Positions 3,328 through 18,053 of a stretch of DNA of 34,476 nucleotides are shown here, piece after piece. The position numbers were made by a program, and so were the translations under genes. The first letter of the stretch is position 1, and the number at the start of each line of letters is the position of its first letter. Under the pieces are notes generated by a model. The model was not told where the DNA came from. It did not search any database and was given only the letters and a program-made list of their open reading frames with translations. The stretch lies in the IMG/VR virus record IMGVR_UViG_2698536573_000006; one strand, written 5' to 3'. The DNA is from a virus (Duplodnaviria; Heunggongvirae; Uroviricota; Caudoviricetes).

Positions 3328-3645
3328 ATGAAAACAATCCGCACTCGCGGAGGTATCCATATATATAAACACGAGGTTAGCATGCTCAGGACAAATCAAA
3401 AAATACTGAAGGATGCATATTTTGACAGGGGGCGAGATCTCGCAAAGCTTTGCGCCGCACTAAAAGAAATCAGTCAGTATTTCACTGATATTGAAGATGA
3501 TATAGCTAACAAAGGTGCCAGTATTACATTAGCGAACAGAGCACATTTTATGGGCTTTAATGTTTTCACAGCCATAAGAACATTAAAAGAACAAAAAGAA
3601 GAAATAGAAAAGCTCAAATACAGACATAAAGCCAAGAGGGTGTAA
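3328..3645 (+). CDS. hypothetical protein in an AT-rich segment
   Basis: 105-aa ORF; the region 3180-3650 is visibly more AT-rich than its flanks. An alternative start at 3382 has a better Shine-Dalgarno. Confidence 0.5.
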   Translation: MKTIRTRGGIHIYKHEVSMLRTNQKILKDAYFDRGRDLAKLCAALKEISQYFTDIEDDIANKGASITLANRAHFMGFNVFTAIRTLKEQKEEIEKLKYRHKAKRV

Positions 3646-3848
3646 TGGCAATTAAGCATTTTCCTGTCGTTCGCTTCACCTCCAGAGACCGCGAATACGA
3701 GGTCGACGAACGACTGATTACCACTATCGACAAACATCGTTCGGAAAAGGATGCACATCACATCTATCTCACTGACGGCACTTACTTCTGCGCCACGAAT
3801 GTGGTGCGGGTGAACCTTATCCGACAGGTACAGGAGTCACGCAGATGA
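3645..3848 (+). CDS. hypothetical early protein
   Basis: 67-aa ORF with an AGAGGG Shine-Dalgarno; overlapping start/stop with neighbours suggests translational coupling. Confidence 0.5.
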   Translation: MAIKHFPVVRFTSRDREYEVDERLITTIDKHRSEKDAHHIYLTDGTYFCATNVVRVNLIRQVQESRR

Positions 3849-4111
3849 CCATTCTGGACTACATCGCTACCCATCCGGGTTGTAGCGGCGGAGAAATCGC
3901 CGCAGCACTGAATACCCCAACCACAGCCATCAATGCTGAGTTACGCCGACTCTGGCGCGGCGGCTTAGTCATCAGAACAAACCGCAGCACAGGTGGTCGC
4001 GCTCGCAAAGCAGGAGGCCAGGCTTCTTACCACGTAAACCCGATGCCGTTCGAGTGTAGCAATCCACTTACTCACATGTTTAACCTGCTACTGAAGGAAG
4101 CCAGAGCATGA
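3845..4111 (+). CDS. putative winged-helix DNA-binding protein
   Basis: 88 aa; the N-terminal segment ILDYIATHPGCSGGEIAAALNTPTTAINAELRRLWRGGLV looks like a MarR/wHTH recognition unit. AGGAG Shine-Dalgarno. Confidence 0.6.
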   Translation: MTILDYIATHPGCSGGEIAAALNTPTTAINAELRRLWRGGLVIRTNRSTGGRARKAGGQASYHVNPMPFECSNPLTHMFNLLLKEARA

Positions 4112-6491: not shown

Positions 6492-9239
6492 ATGACGGCA
6501 GAGTACATCAGGGACTGGCAACAACCGCGCCACGCAGTGGGGCGTGAAGGAACGGGGATCCCCGCTCCTGAATCCGCGCTTTCCTCCTGGCTGGATGCCT
6601 ACCGGGCAGAGAACGAGCGCCGCCAGGAAATGGCTGATGCGGCGTTCTCCGCCACGCCGCTGGGCAACCTGATTAATAAAAGCCTGGACGCACAGGAAAA
6701 ACAGGACAAAACCATCACACTGGCAGGAGACGCCAGAAAGCAGGCACGCGGCGCGGTGGATGAAGCCATGGCCTCGCTGCGCCTGCTGCCGTCCTATCTG
6801 CGCGATCCGCTTATTCGCCACCTCTCCTTCCTGCGCAAAAAACAGGAATCTGACCGCCAGAAAGGTAAAAAGAACCAGCAGGCTGAACGCTACGCGCGCG
6901 GGACCCTGCGCAAAATATTCGAACGTCTGGACCGCACCGACCACCGCTGGCTGACACCGGGTTATCGCGCCCTTGCCGGACGCGAACGCCTGGATGATTT
7001 GCTTTACCTCCCGCAGCTCAACAAGCACCAGATACAGACGCTGGCCACCATGACGGCGGCGATGTTCAGCAGCACCTTCGAAAAACTCTGCGATGGCTTT
7101 GGCGCAACCGATGGCGAGCTGACCATGGATGTAACCCTGAAGGCGTATCAGATGCTGGCCCGCATGGCGTTACACCTGCACGCCATGCCTCCACATTATG
7201 ACGCACTGACAACAGACAAAGACCGGAGGAACGAACCGGACACGGAGCTGCTGCCGGGCGCAATCCTTCGCCTGACCTGTGCGGAATGGTGGAAACGCAA
7301 ACTGTGGCTGTTACGTTGCGAGTGGAGAGAAGAACAACTCCGCGCCGCCTGTCTGGTTTCCAGAAAAACATCGCCCTATCTGAGCCAGGACGCGTTAAGC
7401 GAGTTTCGCGCACAGCGCGAGAAGACACGCGATTTCCTGAAAAGTTTCATGCTGGAAAACGAAGACGGGTTCACGATTGATCTCGAGACAGTGTATTACG
7501 CGGGAGTAAGTAACCCGGTTCACCGTAAGGCAGAAATGATGGCCACCATGAAGGGACTGGAACTTCTGGCCGAAGCCCGTGGCGACAGAGCGGTGTTTCT
7601 GACTGTCACCTGCCCGTCAAAATACCACGCCACAACAGAGAACGGTCATCCGAATCCCAAATGGAACGGGGCCACCATGCGCGACTCCAGCGATTACCTG
7701 GTTAACACGTTTTTTGCGGCTGTCCGCAAAAAACTGAACCGCGACGGTCTGCGCTGGTATGGCATCCGCACGGTGGAGCCTCACCATGACGGCACCGTGC
7801 ACTGGCATATGATGGTCTTTGCTCATCCGGAAGAAATCGACACCATTGTGTCCCACACCCGCGATATTGCCATTCAGGAAGACCGCCACGAGCTGGGCGA
7901 TGACATAACTCCGCGCTTTAAGGCGGAGTACGTCGACGGCTCAAAAGGCACACCAACCAGCTACATCGCCACCTACATCGGAAAGAACCTGGACAGCCAC
8001 GCCGTGGATGGCATCGACCCGAAAACGGGCAAGCCACGCGTTGACCACGAAACCGGAAAATCAATGGCCGAGAGCGTGGAGCGCGCCATCGGCTGGGCGC
8101 GCCTTCACCGGGTCCGCCAGTTCCAGTTCTTTGGCATCCCCTCCCGTCAGGTGTGGCGTGAACTGCGCCGCCTTGCCAGCCAGATGGCACGCAACCCGGA
8201 AGGCCCGCAACGACTGAAGGACGACGCAATGGATGCGGTACTCGCTGCCGCTGATGCCGGGTGTTTTGCCTCCTACATTGAAAAACAGGGTGGCGTACTT
8301 GTTCCACGCAAAGACTACCTGATTCGCACCGCCTACGACCTCGCCGATGAGCTGAACGATTACGGCGAACAGAGCGTACAGATTTACGGGATCTGGTCAC
8401 CACTCATCGGGGAATCCTCCCGTGTGTGCACGCATCCGGATAACTGGAAGCTGGTAAGACGTAAACCGGAAGCGGAAGACAGCGCCCGCGAAAATGGTTT
8501 TGACCTTCAGGGCGGCTCTGCCGCCCCTTGGACTCGTGGCAATAACTGTCCCCGTGTACAGGAAACGGACAACAACGGGACAGAACAGCCGGAGGAACGG
8601 CCAGCACCGTGGCCGCAGCTTCCTGAAGGCGTTGACGTGAATGAATGGATGCGCTCACTGAAACGGCACGAACGCCGGGCACTGATGCGTTCGCTGCGTG
8701 ACAAACAGGCAAAAAACAGCAGTGATGAAATGCAGAACTGGACACAGAGCCGCAAACAGCCACAGCCTTTGCCTGATAACCACGAGTTACTCGCTAAAGA
8801 ATGGCGGGAGTCTGCTGAATCTCTCGGCCTGCATATCGGTGAACAGCAGATGCAGCACCTGTTACGGGGCGGCAGTCTGTACGTTGGCGGCAGCATCATT
8901 ACACCGCAGGGATTTGAAATTGTACGCAAACCGGATACCCGCCCGGACAGCCGAATCACGCAGCTCTGGCAACGCCTGAGTCGTAATCACGGCGTAAGCA
9001 GCACGGAGATCCGCCATAACCCGGTCGCCAGCTATCTGGAACAACTAGAGGCATCAGACCCTGAAGCCGCCGCACGCCTGGCATCCACACTTCAGCAAGA
9101 CCAGAACACCATGAAAACACCAGTTACCGTACTTTCTGACATGCTGCGCGCCATCCGCGACGCAGAGCACGCACAGAGAATCAATGAAACCACTAAACAT
9201 GCTCGCAAAAAAATCAGTTTATTGCATCGAACACGATAG
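6492..9239 (+). CDS. A: replication initiation endonuclease, P2 gpA family (rolling circle)
   Basis: 915 aa; the central region (HHDGTVHWHMMVFAH ... TSYIATYIGKNLD ... WARLHRVRQFQFFGIP) matches the conserved P2 A nickase core as I recall it. Confidence 0.9.
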   Translation: MTAEYIRDWQQPRHAVGREGTGIPAPESALSSWLDAYRAENERRQEMADAAFSATPLGNLINKSLDAQEKQDKTITLAGDARKQARGAVDEAMASLRLLPSYLRDPLIRHLSFLRKKQESDRQKGKKNQQAERYARGTLRKIFERLDRTDHRWLTPGYRALAGRERLDDLLYLPQLNKHQIQTLATMTAAMFSSTFEKLCDGFGATDGELTMDVTLKAYQMLARMALHLHAMPPHYDALTTDKDRRNEPDTELLPGAILRLTCAEWWKRKLWLLRCEWREEQLRAACLVSRKTSPYLSQDALSEFRAQREKTRDFLKSFMLENEDGFTIDLETVYYAGVSNPVHRKAEMMATMKGLELLAEARGDRAVFLTVTCPSKYHATTENGHPNPKWNGATMRDSSDYLVNTFFAAVRKKLNRDGLRWYGIRTVEPHHDGTVHWHMMVFAHPEEIDTIVSHTRDIAIQEDRHELGDDITPRFKAEYVDGSKGTPTSYIATYIGKNLDSHAVDGIDPKTGKPRVDHETGKSMAESVERAIGWARLHRVRQFQFFGIPSRQVWRELRRLASQMARNPEGPQRLKDDAMDAVLAAADAGCFASYIEKQGGVLVPRKDYLIRTAYDLADELNDYGEQSVQIYGIWSPLIGESSRVCTHPDNWKLVRRKPEAEDSARENGFDLQGGSAAPWTRGNNCPRVQETDNNGTEQPEERPAPWPQLPEGVDVNEWMRSLKRHERRALMRSLRDKQAKNSSDEMQNWTQSRKQPQPLPDNHELLAKEWRESAESLGLHIGEQQMQHLLRGGSLYVGGSIITPQGFEIVRKPDTRPDSRITQLWQRLSRNHGVSSTEIRHNPVASYLEQLEASDPEAAARLASTLQQDQNTMKTPVTVLSDMLRAIRDAEHAQRINETTKHARKKISLLHRTR

Positions 9240-9284: not shown

Positions 9285-10058
9285 TCAACCTATCTTCTTA
9301 TGAAGTAAAATTAATTTCTGTATTAATTTGGAATGAAACATAGATATATCAGAAATTCTTATTTCATTAGGCGAGTCTATATGATTGGAAACTTCTTCCT
9401 CCAAGGAGTCACAAATACTTTCTAGATTTTCAATATCTGCATTTAATTCTGGAAAACTATTAAACAAATATAATGAATCCCGTAACTCTCCTAGTTTTGG
9501 TAAAAGAGTATTACTGAATACACTAAGAAACTCCTCTTCTGATAATGCCATGGAGTTTTTAAAACTTTGCACAACATCGAATGCCAACCCATTAATTTTA
9601 GGCATAATTACTTCTCTTACCCAATATCCTTCATTAATAGCTTCTTTACGTTCTTTTCTATGTTGAACATAAGGAATAACAAAGGATGAAACTAAGGCAA
9701 ATAAAGAGATGCCAATAGAAATCCACTCTGGACCATTTTCCGGAACCTTTACAATATTATATATATCATGGGAATTTGGAACATCTTTGAAATAATTAGC
9801 AAATAAATCTTTTTTGTTATCCCTTGCCAGAGATAACTTATGAAAGGTGTCGTTTGCCTTTTCACAAAACATCAAGCCATCATTCGGGTTTCCGGATAAC
9901 AAAAACGGTGATGATATACCACTAAGTCCTGAATCGGAAATATAAAAAGGCGTGTTTGGATAAAGTGACTCATTACATTCAATGTTTTCTTTATTGGAAA
10001 AATCTGTCACAGAGCAAGCTGCGGGGAATATAAAAAAAATGACAGACAGCGCTGTCAT
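9285..10058 (-). CDS. cargo island gene 3: signal-peptide plus single-TM membrane protein
   Basis: ORF 9285..10094. N-terminal hydrophobic signal (MTALSVIFFIFPAACS), a roughly 110-aa extracytoplasmic region, one TM helix (WISIGISLFALVSSFVIPYV), then an acidic helical C-terminal domain. AT-rich. Start ambiguous (10058 or 10094). Confidence 0.65.
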   Translation of the reverse strand: MTALSVIFFIFPAACSVTDFSNKENIECNESLYPNTPFYISDSGLSGISSPFLLSGNPNDGLMFCEKANDTFHKLSLARDNKKDLFANYFKDVPNSHDIYNIVKVPENGPEWISIGISLFALVSSFVIPYVQHRKERKEAINEGYWVREVIMPKINGLAFDVVQSFKNSMALSEEEFLSVFSNTLLPKLGELRDSLYLFNSFPELNADIENLESICDSLEEEVSNHIDSPNEIRISDISMFHSKLIQKLILLHKKIG

Positions 10059-10077
10059 TTTGATTTGAAAAATATTT

Positions 10078-10422
10078 TTAAAAGAAGGGAACATTTTTAT
10101 GTAAGCCTCTCCTTACAGCTCTATCTAATTCAGAAAGCATACCTTCTTTATATTCACGACCATCAAGTACAGTGCGACTATAAAATTCGCTAGGCGAAGA
10201 AAATTTCGGCAAAACCGTTTCAAGCATACCTAGAAAGTATGAGCTTGATACAACAATTCCCTTGGGGATCAATAGATATAATCTATCATTACTGGTTGTG
10301 CAAAATTTCCCTATATTAAAGTAATCATAGGCCTGGCGCCCATTAGAACGTCCAGCAAAAAGTTTCTTGTTACTATCTTTTACTAACTTATTGAAATCTA
10401 TGGTGATGTCAGCCATTTTCAT
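10078..10422 (-). CDS. cargo island gene 2: small STAS-like (DUF4325-like) protein
   Basis: 114 aa; the segment LLIPKGIVVSSSYFLGMLETVL resembles the conserved core of STAS-like small proteins that pair with GHKL kinases. This is from memory, not a search. Begins 10 nt after the upstream gene's stop. Confidence 0.7.
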   Translation of the reverse strand: MKMADITIDFNKLVKDSNKKLFAGRSNGRQAYDYFNIGKFCTTSNDRLYLLIPKGIVVSSSYFLGMLETVLPKFSSPSEFYSRTVLDGREYKEGMLSELDRAVRRGLHKNVPFF

Positions 10423-10432
10423 GTACCTGTCC

Positions 10433-11812
10433 TCAAGTTCGCTGGGTGGCGTTTTCTGGTAGAGGAAAACGAATATTGATCATAACTCCAGGAAATCGAG
10501 CATCCTTCATACGCTTAAGATAGTTGCGATCCGGTTCAGATTCAAGCCCTACATCATTAAAAGGGTAAGTAAAAATGTCACTTTCCTCGTCATTAACCAA
10601 CCTTTGCTTTAATTTATATGATCCATCAAAGTTAATATGAGTACTACCAGATATTAAAGTCATTTTTATCCCACCTTTAATATCTCTTCCCATTTTTTTA
10701 AGATTATCATGCATATCTTGAAATAACTTCAATAATTCAATTGTTCCGGTGCCAGAACTGTCAGTTTCTTTCTCGTTTTTACAACTCACCCGCCCTTGCA
10801 AGGCCGCTACTGTTGTTAATCCTTCCTTAAACATACCCTTTTTCTTAATATGCTTATTTATGTATGGATTAACTTGTTGACTTAATGAAAAATGATCCTC
10901 AGGTAAATTATCAAAAGTTTCGCTGATAGTTTTCCCAAAATTGAAAACAGCCAACTCACATATGGGGTTTCGTACGTTATTATTAACAAAACCTCTCAAA
11001 TACCAGCGTGGGCGTTGCTCTAACCCACAATGCCGCTCCGCATTATCAAGGAGTTCCCCCATGCAGGAAGTTAAATGCTTTTCTGCCTCATGTACAAGTT
11101 TTAAATTATGATCATTTAAGCATTCGTTTATGTATGCGGTAAATTTTTCAGCAGTGACATTTTTTCTGTCATGGGCAAAGGCAGAAGCATTCTCCTTTCC
11201 GATACTATCAGCAGAGAAGATTCGTTTCTTCGGATTCGCTTTTTTCGATGCTTCAGTAGAGTCCAGAACTTTACCTGGTGCAGCATTACTAATCTCTTTT
11301 ACAAGCCCGACATCCCTGATAATTTCAAGATACTGTTCATCTTTAGGGTAGATACCATTAATCTGAATCATCGTATCTTTGAAATTTATATTACTTTGCC
11401 TTGCTGCTGTAAGAGCAACACCTAATAGACACTCAAGACCAAGACAGTGTTTTTTGTTTTTCTTGTAATCAAAAATATATGATTTCCATTTACCTCTTGC
11501 AATTAATTTTGTGGCTGCACTAATAAATAGCAGAGATTTCTCTGGATTGTCATATAAGTCAAAATATTTAGGTATTAATATCTTCTCTGCGTCACGACGA
11601 AGAATTGATGAGTCATACTCTTTTATAATCGATATATTTTCAATGAACGTAGCGACTTGGTTTTGGACAGGAGTTGTTTCATCGGAAAAACGAAGACTAC
11701 CATTTTTCTCTTGCGCAGGCTTTTTTTTCTTAGCTCTCTCAACGCTACGAAGAAATCGCAACCATCCACGTAAAAAGGTTCTTTTAGAATCTTCTTTATT
11801 GATTTTTTTCAT
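10433..11812 (-). CDS. cargo island gene 1: protein with C-terminal GHKL (histidine-kinase-like) ATPase domain
   Basis: ORF 10433..11908; start set at ATG 11812 (MKKINK), which follows AGGAA. The C-terminal region has an N-box-like ELLDNAERH and a G-box-like SGTGTIELL; the N-terminal 250 aa or so is unrecognised. AT-rich. Confidence 0.8.
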   Translation of the reverse strand: MKKINKEDSKRTFLRGWLRFLRSVERAKKKKPAQEKNGSLRFSDETTPVQNQVATFIENISIIKEYDSSILRRDAEKILIPKYFDLYDNPEKSLLFISAATKLIARGKWKSYIFDYKKNKKHCLGLECLLGVALTAARQSNINFKDTMIQINGIYPKDEQYLEIIRDVGLVKEISNAAPGKVLDSTEASKKANPKKRIFSADSIGKENASAFAHDRKNVTAEKFTAYINECLNDHNLKLVHEAEKHLTSCMGELLDNAERHCGLEQRPRWYLRGFVNNNVRNPICELAVFNFGKTISETFDNLPEDHFSLSQQVNPYINKHIKKKGMFKEGLTTVAALQGRVSCKNEKETDSSGTGTIELLKLFQDMHDNLKKMGRDIKGGIKMTLISGSTHINFDGSYKLKQRLVNDEESDIFTYPFNDVGLESEPDRNYLKRMKDARFPGVMINIRFPLPENATQRT

Positions 11813-11930
11813 TTCCAAATGTTCCTGCAAAGTTAACGTAGCCCACAAGGCGCTAAGTATACTTTCTGCTATATTTTTTTCACTATACAAATGCACAATA
11901 GTGCACAAATTTGCACAATTTTTTTGAACG
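11813..11930 (-). promoter_or_regulatory. putative promoter/operator of the cargo operon with three 10-bp-phased TGCACAA repeats
   Basis: TGCACAA at 11892-11898, 11902-11908 and 11912-11918 (top strand), exactly 10 bp apart; on the minus strand the TTGTGCA repeats resemble a -35 element and are followed by TATAGT (top strand 11882-11887). Confidence 0.4.
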
Positions 11931-11988
11931 ACTTTTTGCCCTTCCAGCCCGCGTGGCGGCTGGATCCGTCAAGGATCCGTGCGTGCAC

Positions 11989-12013
11989 AAAAAAACGCGC
12001 TTTTTCTGCGCGC
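11989..12013 (-). terminator. putative intrinsic terminator (minus strand)
   Basis: On the minus strand: stem cgcgc, loop agaaaaa, stem gcgcg, then a 7-T run; sits between the Q end and the cargo island. Confidence 0.45.
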
Positions 12014-12014
12014 A

Positions 12015-12342
12015 GGTGACGGGGGAACAGCCCGCGTTTCAGGGGGTAAATAGCATTCCCTGAACGATGTCGCAGAGATACAACAGAATGGCTGTCTTTC
12101 TCACGCTGAGCGTGAAAAAGACGTGAGGTTTTTTGATTTGATGGGGTGGCAGATAAGGCCGTCAAAATCGCACTGAGGCGGCGAGAACATGCAGTCAGCG
12201 CGATGGGATTGCGTAAGAGCCTGACCGCCGATGATGGCAATAAGCTGGAAGGCGTCGTGAAATTATCTGATTGATACAGGAGCTGGAGAGTCGGGACATA
12301 AATTTTTTATGCCCCGGCGAAGCAGCAGACAAGCGAAGCGCG
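12015..12342. other. non-coding region expected to contain cos (packaging site)
   Basis: P2 cos lies just beyond the 3' end of Q. cos-like GC-rich strings are present (gaggcggcgag near 12175-12193; gcgtggcgg near 11951-11960), but the exact site cannot be fixed by eye. Confidence 0.3.
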
Positions 12343-13389
12343 TCAGGATGTGGGCGGGGTGTCCAGCAGTGCGTAAGGGTTAAAGCGGATCACCTCTTCG
12401 CCAAGCCAGTCATTGATGTGCTTCATGGCCTCCATAACGGGCATCAGCTCGTTAATTGCATAAACCCGCGCGGCCTTCTCCACATCACCAAACGCACTTT
12501 TTTCGCCCGGCATCGCCCCCATCAGTTGCGGCGGAACGCGGTGCGCAGCCAGCACATCATCACGGGATGCCGCCTTAACATTCATGAACTCATCCTTTGC
12601 GGTGATCTGCTGGAACGGCAAAATTTGCACCCCCTCTTTGCCCCCGTTGGGCGCATGAATGAGCACGTTTTTAAATGCACCACCACCACGTGCACCCTGT
12701 AGCGTTTCCTTCAGGGAGTCCATGCTTTCGCGGTTTACCTGCGCTGCACCGATGTAGATGATGCACCCGGCGTGGGATCCATTGTCGTAGTACAGTTTTC
12801 TGAACATGTCCGCCGAATGAGACAGGCTGGCCGAGAGTAATGCGCCGAGATATTCCGGCATGCCGTAGATTTCCTGGTTAATGTCAGGATTCATCAGGTG
12901 GCACACTTTGCCAGGGCGAAACTGAAACGCGTCCTTGCCATCCTGCACATACCACCATGATTCAAGATCGCTTCCGCGTCGCATGTATTTCGCCAGGGCG
13001 TGCCGTAATTTAAGCGGTTCGCCGAGCATATTGCTCCGAAGCTCAAGGAATGCGTTACCGAACACAAACCAGTCCAGCGCCAGCGCCGAGAAATCCTGCC
13101 GGGAAAGCAGCGGGTGCGGGATGTAGCAACTGAGCAATACATTACGCTTAAAGTAAAGCGCAGACTGATGCCAGGACGTTTGCCGGGCAGCTCTTGCCAG
13201 ACCGTACCAGTCCACCGGGGTTTCATACCACCGCCCGTTATCAGCACAGTACATATTGTCCAGCAAATCATGCCCGGTCAGGCGATAAGGACCATCAAAT
13301 GTGAATGCACTGAGCGACGATTCTTTCCTGAGCGCATCAGCGAGATCAATGCGTGAACTCATGCGCACTTTTTTATTTTTTCTGCTCAT
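12343..13389 (-). CDS. Q: portal protein, P2 gpQ family
   Basis: 348 aa; position and orientation (divergent from O, downstream of P) and overall similarity to my recollection of P2 Q. Confidence 0.9.
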   Translation of the reverse strand: MSRKNKKVRMSSRIDLADALRKESSLSAFTFDGPYRLTGHDLLDNMYCADNGRWYETPVDWYGLARAARQTSWHQSALYFKRNVLLSCYIPHPLLSRQDFSALALDWFVFGNAFLELRSNMLGEPLKLRHALAKYMRRGSDLESWWYVQDGKDAFQFRPGKVCHLMNPDINQEIYGMPEYLGALLSASLSHSADMFRKLYYDNGSHAGCIIYIGAAQVNRESMDSLKETLQGARGGGAFKNVLIHAPNGGKEGVQILPFQQITAKDEFMNVKAASRDDVLAAHRVPPQLMGAMPGEKSAFGDVEKAARVYAINELMPVMEAMKHINDWLGEEVIRFNPYALLDTPPTS

Positions 13390-15140
13390 CAGAACTCCAT
13401 AACCGTGAAACGCTCGTTTTCTCCTTCGCCGCCAATCGGTTCGTTAATGACAGCAAGCATGGTTGCCCACGCAAGGTCGCCGTGGCTGATCCCCCTCGCG
13501 CGGTCCGTTTCGTATGTGATAAAGCCGCCCGGTGTTTTCACCTTACGCACGGCGTTAAAGGCCGCGACCAGCTCACGTTCGGCGCGATCGTATTCCCACC
13601 GCCCGGCACGCATTATTTGCAACATTTTCAGTACCAGCGACCGTTTTGATGACAGCGTGAAGGTGTACGGAATAGCAGCAGGGAAAAACCGTTTCACTAT
13701 CTGATAAACAGCCTCCCCGTTCCCGCCTGTCACATCAATGCCGATGTGTTCCACGTTGTAGCGACACGTGAACTCTTCAATGACTCTGGCCTGTTCTTCA
13801 AACTCCAGCCCCTGAACGCGTCGCGTCTCCACCGTTCGAAAACGGCCTCCATGAACAGCCGGAGGAACCACCACGGACACAGCGCCGCTGTCGCCGTTTC
13901 CACTGCTGCCGTTTGCGTCATACCCAATCCATACCGGACGATTCCCCATCGGGCGGGGAGCAAAAGGTTTCCAGTCTTTCCAGTCGTCGTATCCGTCAAC
14001 ACCGCAGCCAATCAGGATATTCAGGTTAAATGCCGATTCCCCTTCGCGGACAAACTCACACATATAGAGATTGCGGAACTCGTCTTCGGTGTTTTCATCA
14101 CGAATTTCGTCAATATCGGTGTGTTTCCAGCCGTGATTAACCACATCTTCCAGCGTGACAATTTGCCGCCACGTCCGGTCAGGGCAGATAAGCCCGTTAT
14201 GCAGCGTTTTCCAGTCCACAGAAAAACGCTGGCGTTTATGCGTGGTCTTTTTCTCGTTCCAGCGGTCGCCGTTCCAGTAGGCGTATGCCTCGTGCGTTTC
14301 GGTGGATGGCGTGGAGAAGTAGGTGCGCCGCAGTCCGCTGAGGGTTGCCATAGCGCCAGCCACCTTGCGCAGTTCAGCAAAGCGACTGACCCAGAAAAAT
14401 TCATCAAAATAAAAATTGCCCGTGTAGGACTGTGCCGTCGCAGCAGAAGTACCAAGAAAATGCAGCTCTGCGCCGTTGGAGAGGATGATTTTATCGCCCC
14501 CTTTCAGCTCCACATCAACTTCAGATGCAGCCTTCTGAATAATGCTTTTAAACTGGAACGCCTGACGACGCGACGCAGACAAAAAAATCTGGTTACGCTG
14601 GTAAGGTTGCGCCACATCGTCACGCAGCGCCATCAGCAGTGCTTCCTGTGCAAAATACCAGGTCGCTCCAATCTGTCGGGATTTCAGGATCATCCTGTTA
14701 CGTATCCCGGCTTCCCTGCAAAGGGTCAGGGAGTCAAACCAGCCCCGCTGATGCCACTCCAGCCTGCTGATGATTTTTTCCCGCAGTGCGGCAATCTGTT
14801 CCTGCGTGAAATGATTTTTGAGTTTTTTCGCCCGGCTTTTCTTTCCTGTGGCCGTCGCATCCGGCTGGCCATCATGCAGTTTTTTAAGCTGCCGGGTCAG
14901 CAGGTCTATTTCCTTAAAGTCACCGCCTGTTTTATTCTTTTTTTCAGTAAGCTGGATGAGGCGCGCATCGATGGACTGCGTGACACGCTGCACGGGTGGT
15001 GTTTCATCCCACTGGTCGCGTTTTTTCCACGCATAAATCGTGTTCGGGTTTATTCCCATCAGACGTGATATTTCTGCGGGCGGATAACCCTGCCAGTAAA
15101 GTTGCCGCGCACGCTGGCGCACAAAAGCGTCCTGAATCAT
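13389..15140 (-). CDS. P: terminase large (ATPase) subunit, P2 gpP family
   Basis: 583 aa; classic P2 P position upstream of Q on the same strand; its stop overlaps the Q start. Confidence 0.9.
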   Translation of the reverse strand: MIQDAFVRQRARQLYWQGYPPAEISRLMGINPNTIYAWKKRDQWDETPPVQRVTQSIDARLIQLTEKKNKTGGDFKEIDLLTRQLKKLHDGQPDATATGKKSRAKKLKNHFTQEQIAALREKIISRLEWHQRGWFDSLTLCREAGIRNRMILKSRQIGATWYFAQEALLMALRDDVAQPYQRNQIFLSASRRQAFQFKSIIQKAASEVDVELKGGDKIILSNGAELHFLGTSAATAQSYTGNFYFDEFFWVSRFAELRKVAGAMATLSGLRRTYFSTPSTETHEAYAYWNGDRWNEKKTTHKRQRFSVDWKTLHNGLICPDRTWRQIVTLEDVVNHGWKHTDIDEIRDENTEDEFRNLYMCEFVREGESAFNLNILIGCGVDGYDDWKDWKPFAPRPMGNRPVWIGYDANGSSGNGDSGAVSVVVPPAVHGGRFRTVETRRVQGLEFEEQARVIEEFTCRYNVEHIGIDVTGGNGEAVYQIVKRFFPAAIPYTFTLSSKRSLVLKMLQIMRAGRWEYDRAERELVAAFNAVRKVKTPGGFITYETDRARGISHGDLAWATMLAVINEPIGGEGENERFTVMEF

Positions 15141-17252: not shown

Positions 17253-18053
17253 ATGATTACTCCTGCACAGCAACACTGGCAGAACGTGATGGCACAGCGC
17301 GCAGGCCAGGCGAATGAAGGCGTGGACCACGCCGCGCGTACCGCGCATGAAGAGGTGCTGTATCGTCTGCGTCTGGCACAGGCCCGGCTTAAGGGCGTAC
17401 AGGCCAGAAGCGCGAAAGCCGCCATCAAAAAAGAGTTGTTGCCGGACTTTTCCGGCTGGATTGAGGGAACGCTGGAGGCTGACGGCGGGCAGCAGGATGA
17501 AGTGATTGCCACGCTGATGGTGTGGGCGATTGACTGCGACGATCTTCCGCTTGCGCTGCGTATTGGTGCGTATGTGGTCCGTCACAACCTCATCATGCCG
17601 GATAACTTTGGCCGTACTGCTGCCACAGTGCTGACCGAAGAAATCTGCAACCCGGTACTGACGCAGGCCGGGACGGATGCCGACGCGGATTTGTCCGCCT
17701 TTATCGAACCACTGGATACCCTCCGGGAGATTGTCACCGACCAGGACATGCCGGACGAAGTGCGCGCCAAATTATGCAAGGCGTGCGCCTTTGCCCGTCG
17801 TGGTCTGAGTGATGCGGACAGCATGGCCCTGTCACTGAAGCTGCTGCGCGAAGCAATGCACCTGAACCCGAACGCAGGTGTGAAACGCGAGATTGCAACC
17901 CTTTCCCGCGCCCTGAAAAAAGCCGATTCCGCAGCCGCACCAGAAGACGCCAGCACACAGCAGACGCAGGACGAAAGCAGCAAAAGTAAAAAGACAACGC
18001 GGAAGCCTGCAACACGAAAAACCACCGCGACGCAGAAGGCGAAGCGCGGTTAA
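17253..18053 (+). CDS. M: terminase small/endonuclease subunit, P2 gpM family
   Basis: 266 aa at the gpM position, with a basic C-terminal tail. Confidence 0.85.
   Translation: MITPAQQHWQNVMAQRAGQANEGVDHAARTAHEEVLYRLRLAQARLKGVQARSAKAAIKKELLPDFSGWIEGTLEADGGQQDEVIATLMVWAIDCDDLPLALRIGAYVVRHNLIMPDNFGRTAATVLTEEICNPVLTQAGTDADADLSAFIEPLDTLREIVTDQDMPDEVRAKLCKACAFARRGLSDADSMALSLKLLREAMHLNPNAGVKREIATLSRALKKADSAAAPEDASTQQTQDESSKSKKTTRKPATRKTTATQKAKRG

Follow-up and report, generated by a model that had tools for sequence, protein, structure and literature searches.

The locus between the genes for gpA and gpQ is a hotspot for variable anti-phage cargo that adjoins the cos site (Rousset et al., PMC9122126), and a set of short phased repeats found there raises the question of which neighbor the repeats serve, the cargo or the packaging site. 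We addressed this question in a stretch of 34,476 nucleotides (nt) (IMG/VR record IMGVR_UViG_2698536573_000006; here called the window), which is a P88-like prophage of the P2 family, with its closest relatives among the P88-like phages of the genus Xuanwuvirus. Its gpA-gpQ hotspot contains a minus-strand cargo operon of three open reading frames (ORFs) (459, 114, and 269 amino acids [aa]; positions 9285 to 11812), and just upstream of the operon lie three copies of TGCACAA. An earlier reading of the sequence (the original prediction) took these copies for an operator- or iteron-like array controlling the cargo. The analysis described here leads elsewhere. The array very probably belongs to the phage backbone, where it is linked to cos, and, together with a fourth copy closer to cos, it probably forms a lineage-specific cos recognition array that would be bound by terminase, through either the small subunit gpM or the helix-turn-helix of the large subunit gpP.

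The three phased copies that had been claimed were borne out on the plus strand at 11892 to 11898, 11902 to 11908, and 11912 to 11918, with start-to-start spacings of 10 and 10 bp. The word TGCACAA is not itself enriched in the window (7 occurrences versus 8.8 expected), and the phased set is the sole triple of any 7-mer at a period of 8 to 13. Dinucleotide-preserving shuffles of the window yielded a 7-mer triple at period 10 in 0 of 300 cases and one at periods 8 to 13 in 1 of 300, and none of 5,000 shuffles of the intergenic region reproduced the phased triple. A fourth exact TGCACAA, overlooked previously, lies at 11984 to 11990, 72 bp after the third copy. It begins the sequence TGCACAAAAAAAC (11984 to 11996, plus strand), referred to below as the proximal copy; the three phased copies, of the general form YGCACAA, are referred to as the distal array (11892 to 11918, plus strand). 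Directly after the third copy comes a T-tract, TTTTTTTG (11919 to 11926, plus strand), which is kept in nearly all P88-type lineages and could possibly bend the DNA or be part of a binding site. The intervening segment (11940 to 11981) holds GC-rich palindromes, namely, TCCAGCC/GGCTGGA at 11943 to 11964 and two copies of GGATCCGT at 11962 to 11980. With up to one mismatch allowed, no other TGCACAA-like cluster was present in the window, including the C/cox region (1476 to 1536; Cox itself is encoded at 1536 to 1823) and the winged-helix gene (3845 to 4111), a result that speaks against the suggestion that Cox, C, or the winged-helix protein is the regulator acting on the repeats.

Comparison with other prophages placed the array on the phage side of the cargo junction. 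In megablast searches of Escherichia coli genomes and phages, homology to other prophages started at ~11890 and continued to the portal gene, and 1,143 E. coli records carried this block. In alignments with P88 and with the prophage of E2348/69, homology broke exactly at the first repeat. Because the homologous block shared with other P88-like prophages spans the DNA from the first repeat to the portal gene, we assign the array to the backbone and not to the cargo; the first copy is the right boundary of the cargo hotspot, and the array lies on the conserved side. The exact array was found in more than 120 IMG/VR contigs, beside at least 70 different 40-nt left flanks. The cargo next to it may be oriented on either strand, and many plus-strand cargos end just before it. 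In P88, the E2348/69 prophage, and Enterobacter phage phiT5282H, the cargo is on the plus strand and has its terminator just to the left of the array, so that the array is no promoter element for that cargo. A portal-anchored sample of 78 loci, which is unbiased with respect to the array, contained it in 77 cases; in the single array-less locus, an extra ORF between cos and Q shifts the array beyond the scanned stretch. Since the array stays with the backbone beside at least 70 cargo flanks, the idea of an operator controlling the island is not supported. The check that had been proposed for that idea, conservation of the repeats in front of homologous islands, had a positive outcome but was uninformative, since the repeats are kept beside every island in the hotspot.

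The position of the array is fixed relative to a predicted cohesive-end site. The plus-strand sequence GGTGACGGGGGAACAGCCC at 12015 to 12033 is identical to P2 cos (GGCGAGGCGGGGAAAGCAC) at 13 of 19 positions and agrees with it in orientation with respect to gene Q, and on this basis we predict it to be cosN. It lies 328 bp from the Q stop codon, within the best-conserved stretch of a block that extends from the array across cos and is closed by the portal gene (gpQ; 12343 to 13389, minus strand). What the window and phiT5282H have in common is limited to the array, the fourth copy of the motif, and a string, GCGCAGGTGACGGGGGAACAGCCC, of which the last 19 nt correspond to 12015 to 12033. Measured from the start of the predicted cos, the distal copies are at −123, −113, and −103, at 10-bp spacing, and the proximal copy is at −31. 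We counted motif positions in scans anchored on the two cosN sequences, using distinct flanks only. Among 124 P88-type flanks, YGCACAA was found at −123 ± 1 in 106, at −113 ± 1 in 121, at −103 ± 1 in 120, and at −31 ± 1 in 121. The corresponding motif of 104 P2-type flanks, TGCAT, occurred at −124 to −120 in 75, at −111 ± 1 in 83, at −101 ± 1 in 91, and at −29 in 99, over a background in these flanks of 0.0008 per position. In both groups, 72 bp separate the third copy from the proximal one; the intervening segment differs in sequence among lineages and is constant in length.

The organization between the proximal copy and cosN is similar in the two groups. In the window, TGCACAAAAAAA at −31 is followed by a GC-rich hairpin (11995 to 12013) that is terminator-like on the minus strand (GCGCGCAGAAAAAGCGCGT plus T7); in P2 and P4, TGCATTAAAACC at −29 is followed by CCGCCCCG..CGGGCGG at the position of the window's hairpin. 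We also noted that, on the minus strand, this hairpin has the look of an intrinsic terminator both in the window and in P2 (~4055 to 4076 in the P2 locus, L206), with the proximal copy's A run as its U tract. Its role may be to keep late P-Q transcripts out of the hotspot; alternatively, it may contribute to the recognition of cos.

The pattern of conservation within the block resembles that of a set of binding sites. For this footprint, divergent lineages were taken from the cos-anchored scan. The consensus of 13 divergent P88-type lineages retains only the YGCACAA triple, the T-tract after it, the short string ccCtT..gcCc, the proximal TGCACAAAAAA, and the bases adjacent to cosN; the lineages vary in the 3-nt spacers and in most of the 60 bp that lie in between. 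For P88-type flanks whose selection did not depend on the array, pairwise identity averaged 0.31 to the left of the array, 0.87 in the motifs, 0.73 in the spacers, 0.94 in the T-tract (the highest value in the flank), 0.71 in the intervening DNA, and 0.91 in the proximal copy. In P2-type flanks, the distal motifs scored 0.61, the intervening DNA scored 0.36, and the proximal copy scored 0.98. One part of the original prediction therefore stands, in that the 7-mers are kept while the spacers drift, as phased sites for a phage-specified DNA-binding protein would be; the part that made the array the operator of the island is not supported.

The same architecture, built from a different motif, was found in other members of the family. 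P2 has TGCAT at −123, −111, and −101 and TGCATT at −29, and P4 has TGCAT at −124, −111, −101, and −29, despite the unrelated DNA in between. The layout in 186 and PSP3 is that of P2. The TGCATTAAAACC at −29 in P2 and P4 is the positional counterpart of the window's proximal copy, and it forms the left edge of the stretch around cos that P2 and P4 conserve; we take this stretch, starting at the proximal copy, to be the published “55-bp cos region.” The packaging signal has been reported as the sole element shared by P4 and P2 (PMC9122126, PMC9594776). Like the predicted cos of the window, that of P2 and P4 lies between the gpA-side hotspot and gene Q, has a G-rich 19-nt cohesive end, and is preceded by a GC hairpin and by a TGCA-containing motif with an A run at about −30. 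The P2/P4 site differs in having TGCAT in place of YGCACAA and in its cosN sequence, and the window's phased triple, at −103 to −123, lies beyond the 55 bp described in those passages of later papers that cite Ziermann and Calendar (1990). Still another variant of the YGCA core is present in phiCTX (Peduoviridae), which has YGCAGRR at −109, −99, −83, −37, and −28, i.e., three distal and two proximal copies to the left of cos, and whose record (NC_003278) annotates repeats R4 to R6 across cos. Unlike the window, phiCTX shows less regular spacing, and attP and int adjoin its cos. HP1 has a different repeat (CACGGAAA) in a different layout.

A further string in this region deserves mention on its own account. 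A semiconserved GGCGCGG(T/A)(C/T)C(T)GA is present about −60 to −45 from cos in P2-type and several P88-type flanks, as at 11569 to 11581 in P4 (L207), at 3566 to 3578 in L204, and, as GGCGGCTGGATCC, at 11955 to 11967 in the window. The DNA around it, between the distal array and the proximal copy, is otherwise hypervariable. This string may be an additional recognition element.

Which protein would read the repeats? The candidates are gpM, the terminase small subunit (17253 to 18053, plus strand; Pfam Phage_term_smal), and gpP, the large subunit (13389 to 15140, minus strand), which has an N-terminal helix-turn-helix at residues 6 to 63 (Terminase_5/HTH_23). In BLASTP local alignments, identity to the P2 homologue was 35% for gpM, 41% for gpN, 44% for gpP, and 48% for gpQ, making gpM the most diverged head or packaging protein with respect to P2. 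Identity to the homologues in phiT5282H, which belongs to another genus and has the same cos and array as the window, was 47% for gpN, 58% for gpM, 69% for gpQ, and 79% for gpP (88% in the helix-turn-helix and 78% in the rest), the gpN figure being near the one for P2. These values are suggestive of a cos type that travels with the Q-P(-M) module, a pattern for which physical linkage is another possible explanation. Across the family, three motif types match three cosN types (P2/186/PSP3/P4, P88-like, and phiCTX); the independent lineages are few, and linkage alone could yield this match as well. TGCAT and YGCACAA both occur in phages of E. coli, each with its own cosN type, and TGCAT is shared by P2 and 186, which have different immunity systems and both help P4. 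The presence of two motif types in one host species, together with the motif common to P2 and 186, points to a phage packaging protein rather than to a host factor or an immunity regulator.

With moderate confidence, we favor binding of the array by terminase and a role in packaging, and the following sequence of events would account for the observations. Late in infection, terminase would bind the proximal copy, beside the GC hairpin and cosN, with gpM and/or the N-terminal helix-turn-helix of gpP as the reading part. It would also bind the distal array, whose three copies share one face of the helix and are located at the right-end side of the predicted cohesive-end site. The fixed 72-bp distance would allow bending or wrapping of the intervening DNA, bringing both sets within the hold of a single terminase assembly, and the outcome would be specific and efficient recognition of cos on circular monomers. 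Exchange of cargo in the gpA-gpQ hotspot would stop at the first copy because the phage needs the array, and the cargo operon would use a promoter of its own in cargo-specific DNA. P2-family phages package circular monomers, and packaging of circular monomers by some phages has been described (PMC6893505). In a cosmid study, constructs with longer P2 cos flanks transduced at 0.035 versus 1.7 × 10^−5 for a short cos region, a comparison that is confounded, since the constructs differed in other respects (PMC9594776).

Two known kinds of site provide a measure of this proposal. In phage lambda, cosB has the order R3-I1-R2-R1, in which 16-bp R sites are bound by the small terminase subunit gpNu1 and the DNA is bent by integration host factor (IHF). 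The array resembles cosB in having several copies of a short motif near the nicking site, in the need for the DNA between them to bend, and in the presumed recruitment of terminase. Unlike cosB, it lies on the side of cosN opposite the terminase and portal genes, consists of three phased 7-mers plus one proximal copy, and has no evident IHF site, and its binding is putative. The Cox boxes of P2 and the Apl sites of 186 are phased direct repeats read by small excisionase/regulator proteins of the phage at the Pe/Pc switch and at attP, and they share with the array the use of short direct repeats about one helical turn apart. In contrast, the window has no TGCACAA-like cluster at its switch, and P2 and 186 share the TGCAT array despite the unrelated specificities of Cox and Apl, as does P4.

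Several points weigh against recognition by terminase. No deposited phage genome record starts at the predicted cosN, and the assignment of cosN in P88-like phages, which we infer from sequence, depends on the 13/19 identity to P2 cos. In close relatives (portal proteins at least 99% identical), the whole 450-bp block is 93 to 99% identical, and the motifs do not stand out from it. P2-type phages keep the distal copies only moderately, with four exact TGCAT copies in 24 of 74 distinct flanks, in comparison with 20 of 21 distinct flanks of P4-like satellites (exact copies; loci L251 to L369); satellites are possibly under stronger pressure for an optimal packaging signal than are P2-type phages. 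The analogy with lambda would place a cosB-like element on the end that is packaged first, which in P2 is the gene Q side, opposite to the array. Moreover, later papers that cite Ziermann and Calendar (1990) present only the 55-bp cos region, shared by P2-like phages and P4, as both conserved and required (PMC3931495, PMC5247547, PMC9594776). The distal triple, being outside that region, may be dispensable or merely stimulatory. Finally, the annotated starts of the P2 old-tin transcripts lie 26 to 28 bp to the left of the array (3925/3927 in L206), with a −35-like TTGAAT over the first TGCAT copy.

The old-tin arrangement also argues for a promoter function, according to which the backbone would supply, through the array, a promoter or operator for any minus-strand cargo, as in P2 old-tin, with a phage protein or RNA polymerase using TTGTGCA in the lysogen or upon induction. 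The position of the array immediately upstream of a minus-strand cargo gene in the window, with a TATAGT following the last TTGTGCA, fits this possibility. The original prediction had paired that TATAGT with a −35 element as the cargo promoter. The hexamer is present (11887 to 11882, minus strand) and makes a possible pair with TTGTGC in the middle repeat, but the 15 bp between them are few for a sigma-70 promoter, and the hexamer is not conserved. The island occurs in 23 E. coli genomes, two of which have a diverged copy (78.5% identical) in the same phage context. In the diverged copy, TATAGT is TATGGT and the 5′ untranslated region is changed, with TTTGTAT(A/G)GTGAAAAAAA..AGAAAGTATACT kept upstream of the start codon. 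A second candidate was found by a promoter scan in cargo-specific DNA (11856 to 11883, minus strand), with GTGAAA as the −35 element (11883 to 11878), a 16-nt spacer, and TATACT as the −10 element (11861 to 11856). The pair GTGAAA-N15/16-TATACT is conserved in the diverged copy, and GTGAAA-N16-TATACT is more likely to be the cargo promoter than is TATAGT. Relative to it, the array occupies about −43 to −69, a typical position for an activator site or UP element.

Other observations make it unlikely that a promoter or operator function is what maintains the array. P88, E2348/69, and phiT5282H keep it intact although their plus-strand cargo terminates before it, and the equivalent array of P4 lies downstream of psu, with no gene read out of it. 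It is with respect to cosN, not to the start of any gene, that the array has a constant position, and the motif forms no second cluster in the window. The array, or proteins bound to it, may influence a leftward cargo promoter, but such an influence would be secondary and not the reason for the conservation of the array.

A purely architectural role, in which bent DNA or sites for host nucleoid proteins shape or insulate cos and no phage protein recognizes the repeats, seems to us less probable still. TGCA steps that recur every 10 bp between A/T tracts (A7 at 11920 to 11926 on the minus strand, AAATTT, and the conserved T-tract) are typical of curved DNA, and lambda cosB makes use of host IHF between its R sites. 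However, the spacers drift while conservation of the seven motif positions goes further than curvature would require, phages of one host species retain both TGCAT and YGCACAA, with a separate cosN type for each motif, and inspection of the array revealed no match to the IHF consensus WATCAANNNNTTR.

It is very improbable that the array is a recombination site for exchange of cargo modules, with the first copy as the crossover point. Homology does break within 1 to 2 nt of the first copy at dozens of unrelated cargo junctions, and this copy is the most variable (TGCACGA, CGCACAA, and TGCAAAA). A boundary this sharp would also result from selection on an essential element beside freely exchanged DNA. 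No recombinase was found in the examined cargo by Pfam, PADLOC, and NCBIfam searches, P4 has the array even though its hotspot lies at the opposite side of cos (PMC13586616), and a fixed distance to cosN would be left unexplained.

The least credible proposal, that the repeats form the stem of a plus-strand intrinsic terminator (GTGCA-CAAATT-TGCAC plus T7) stopping early-operon or cargo transcripts before cos, draws on a terminator-like site at 11901 to 11916 followed by a T run in a pattern scan and on a hairpin stem formed by the first two TGCAT copies after psu in P4, and it conflicts with a predicted fold of the array (−6.1 kcal/mol) no better than those of shuffled sequences (z = −0.7 and −1.0), with the retention in L210 of all three motifs and no hairpin (−2.6 kcal/mol; z = 0), with the strong terminators that plus-strand cargos themselves carry just before the array, and with the lack of a T run after the third copy in P2.

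Other candidates were rejected. Replication origin iterons do not fit, as the nick site of the P2 origin is annotated inside gene A, whereas the array lies 2.6 kb from the end of gpA and beside cos; the annotated ori repeats of P4 have another location and another sequence. DnaA boxes, CRP half-sites, and Ogr-type TGT-N12-ACA dyads were checked by eye and either did not fit or have no role at this place in P2 biology. A search of Rfam families with the intergenic region returned only a chance-level gyrA match elsewhere in it (E = 0.49).

If the array is a packaging signal, as we favor, it explains why, in P88-like and P2-like prophages, the cargo hotspot stops at a single defined base, past which lies DNA that the phage could not do without. 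The 55-bp cos would then probably be incomplete for the construction of P2/P4 transducing particles, which should retain ~125 bp at the right-end side. The motif (TGCAT or YGCACAA) combined with the cosN type would also be a marker for predicting the helper of a satellite or cosmid. More generally, repeats adjoining a defense island are not necessarily the regulator of that island.

We tentatively extend this proposal to the family, as a conjecture with somewhat less than even prospects. The cos signal of P2-family phages would be larger than 55 bp and would include a distal module of three phased YGCA-core repeats located 72 bp from a proximal copy, so that ~100 bp would be bent or wrapped on one terminase assembly. 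The motif variants TGCAT, YGCACAA, and YGCAGRR would define packaging-compatibility groups, and the distal module would set the outer limit of the hotspot. Under this conjecture, the compatibility groups would decide the pairing of satellites with helpers, with P4-like satellites in the TGCAT group. The YGCACAA group would include a 12.7-kb satellite-like element (L120) that has a YGCACAA array (~4031 to 4059) and a P88-type cos (~3918 to 3936) and of which a partial copy was found (L105). This element encodes a P4-like integrase, a second integrase-like ORF, an 897-aa Toprim protein, a 470-aa homologue of the P2-family major capsid protein, and a PemK toxin and has no portal gene; it may be a capsid-encoding satellite of P88-like helpers. 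No P4-type satellite with a P88-type cos was present in the sample, in which only these two elements turned up. In the full-text literature searched, which did not extend to the original 1990 P2/P4 cos paper, the distal repeats are not described and only the “55-bp cos region” appears, so their novelty is uncertain.

The cargo itself had been described as beginning with a GHKL gene. That label was not confirmed, as none of the three cargo proteins had a match in Pfam, PADLOC, or NCBIfam. The three-gene cargo was found in 23 of 5,426 complete E. coli genomes, always in this hotspot and in two versions that are 78.5% identical, and it is a candidate for an uncharacterized defense system. The gene on the other side of it, encoding the replication protein gpA (6492 to 9239, plus strand), is listed as an ORF of 915 aa, in comparison with a 2,286-bp A gene (761 codons) in the P2 record. 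The Pfam GPA domain starts at residue 179, and the extra length is either an N-terminal extension or an artifact of an upstream start codon.

Exchange between phages may involve more than the cargo. E2348/69 (L003) and phiT5282H (L204) have the same cargo (an AAA ATPase and an S8 peptidase), the same terminator, and the same junction with the array, in which copy 1 is TGCACGA. The DNA to the right of cos is unrelated in these phages of two genera, which suggests that cargo, array, and cos were transferred together.

Two features were noted on the opposite side of cos. A 14-nt inverted repeat (GTCTTTCTCACGCT/AGCGTGAAAAAGAC) lies at 12094 to 12122, between cosN and the portal gene, and is kept in close relatives. 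In some P88-like prophages, such as those in L199 and in E. coli 23CRST027 (L376; 6464 to 7057), an additional ORF of 197 aa separates cos from the portal gene, and the site of this ORF constitutes a second, small insertion point across cos from the main hotspot.

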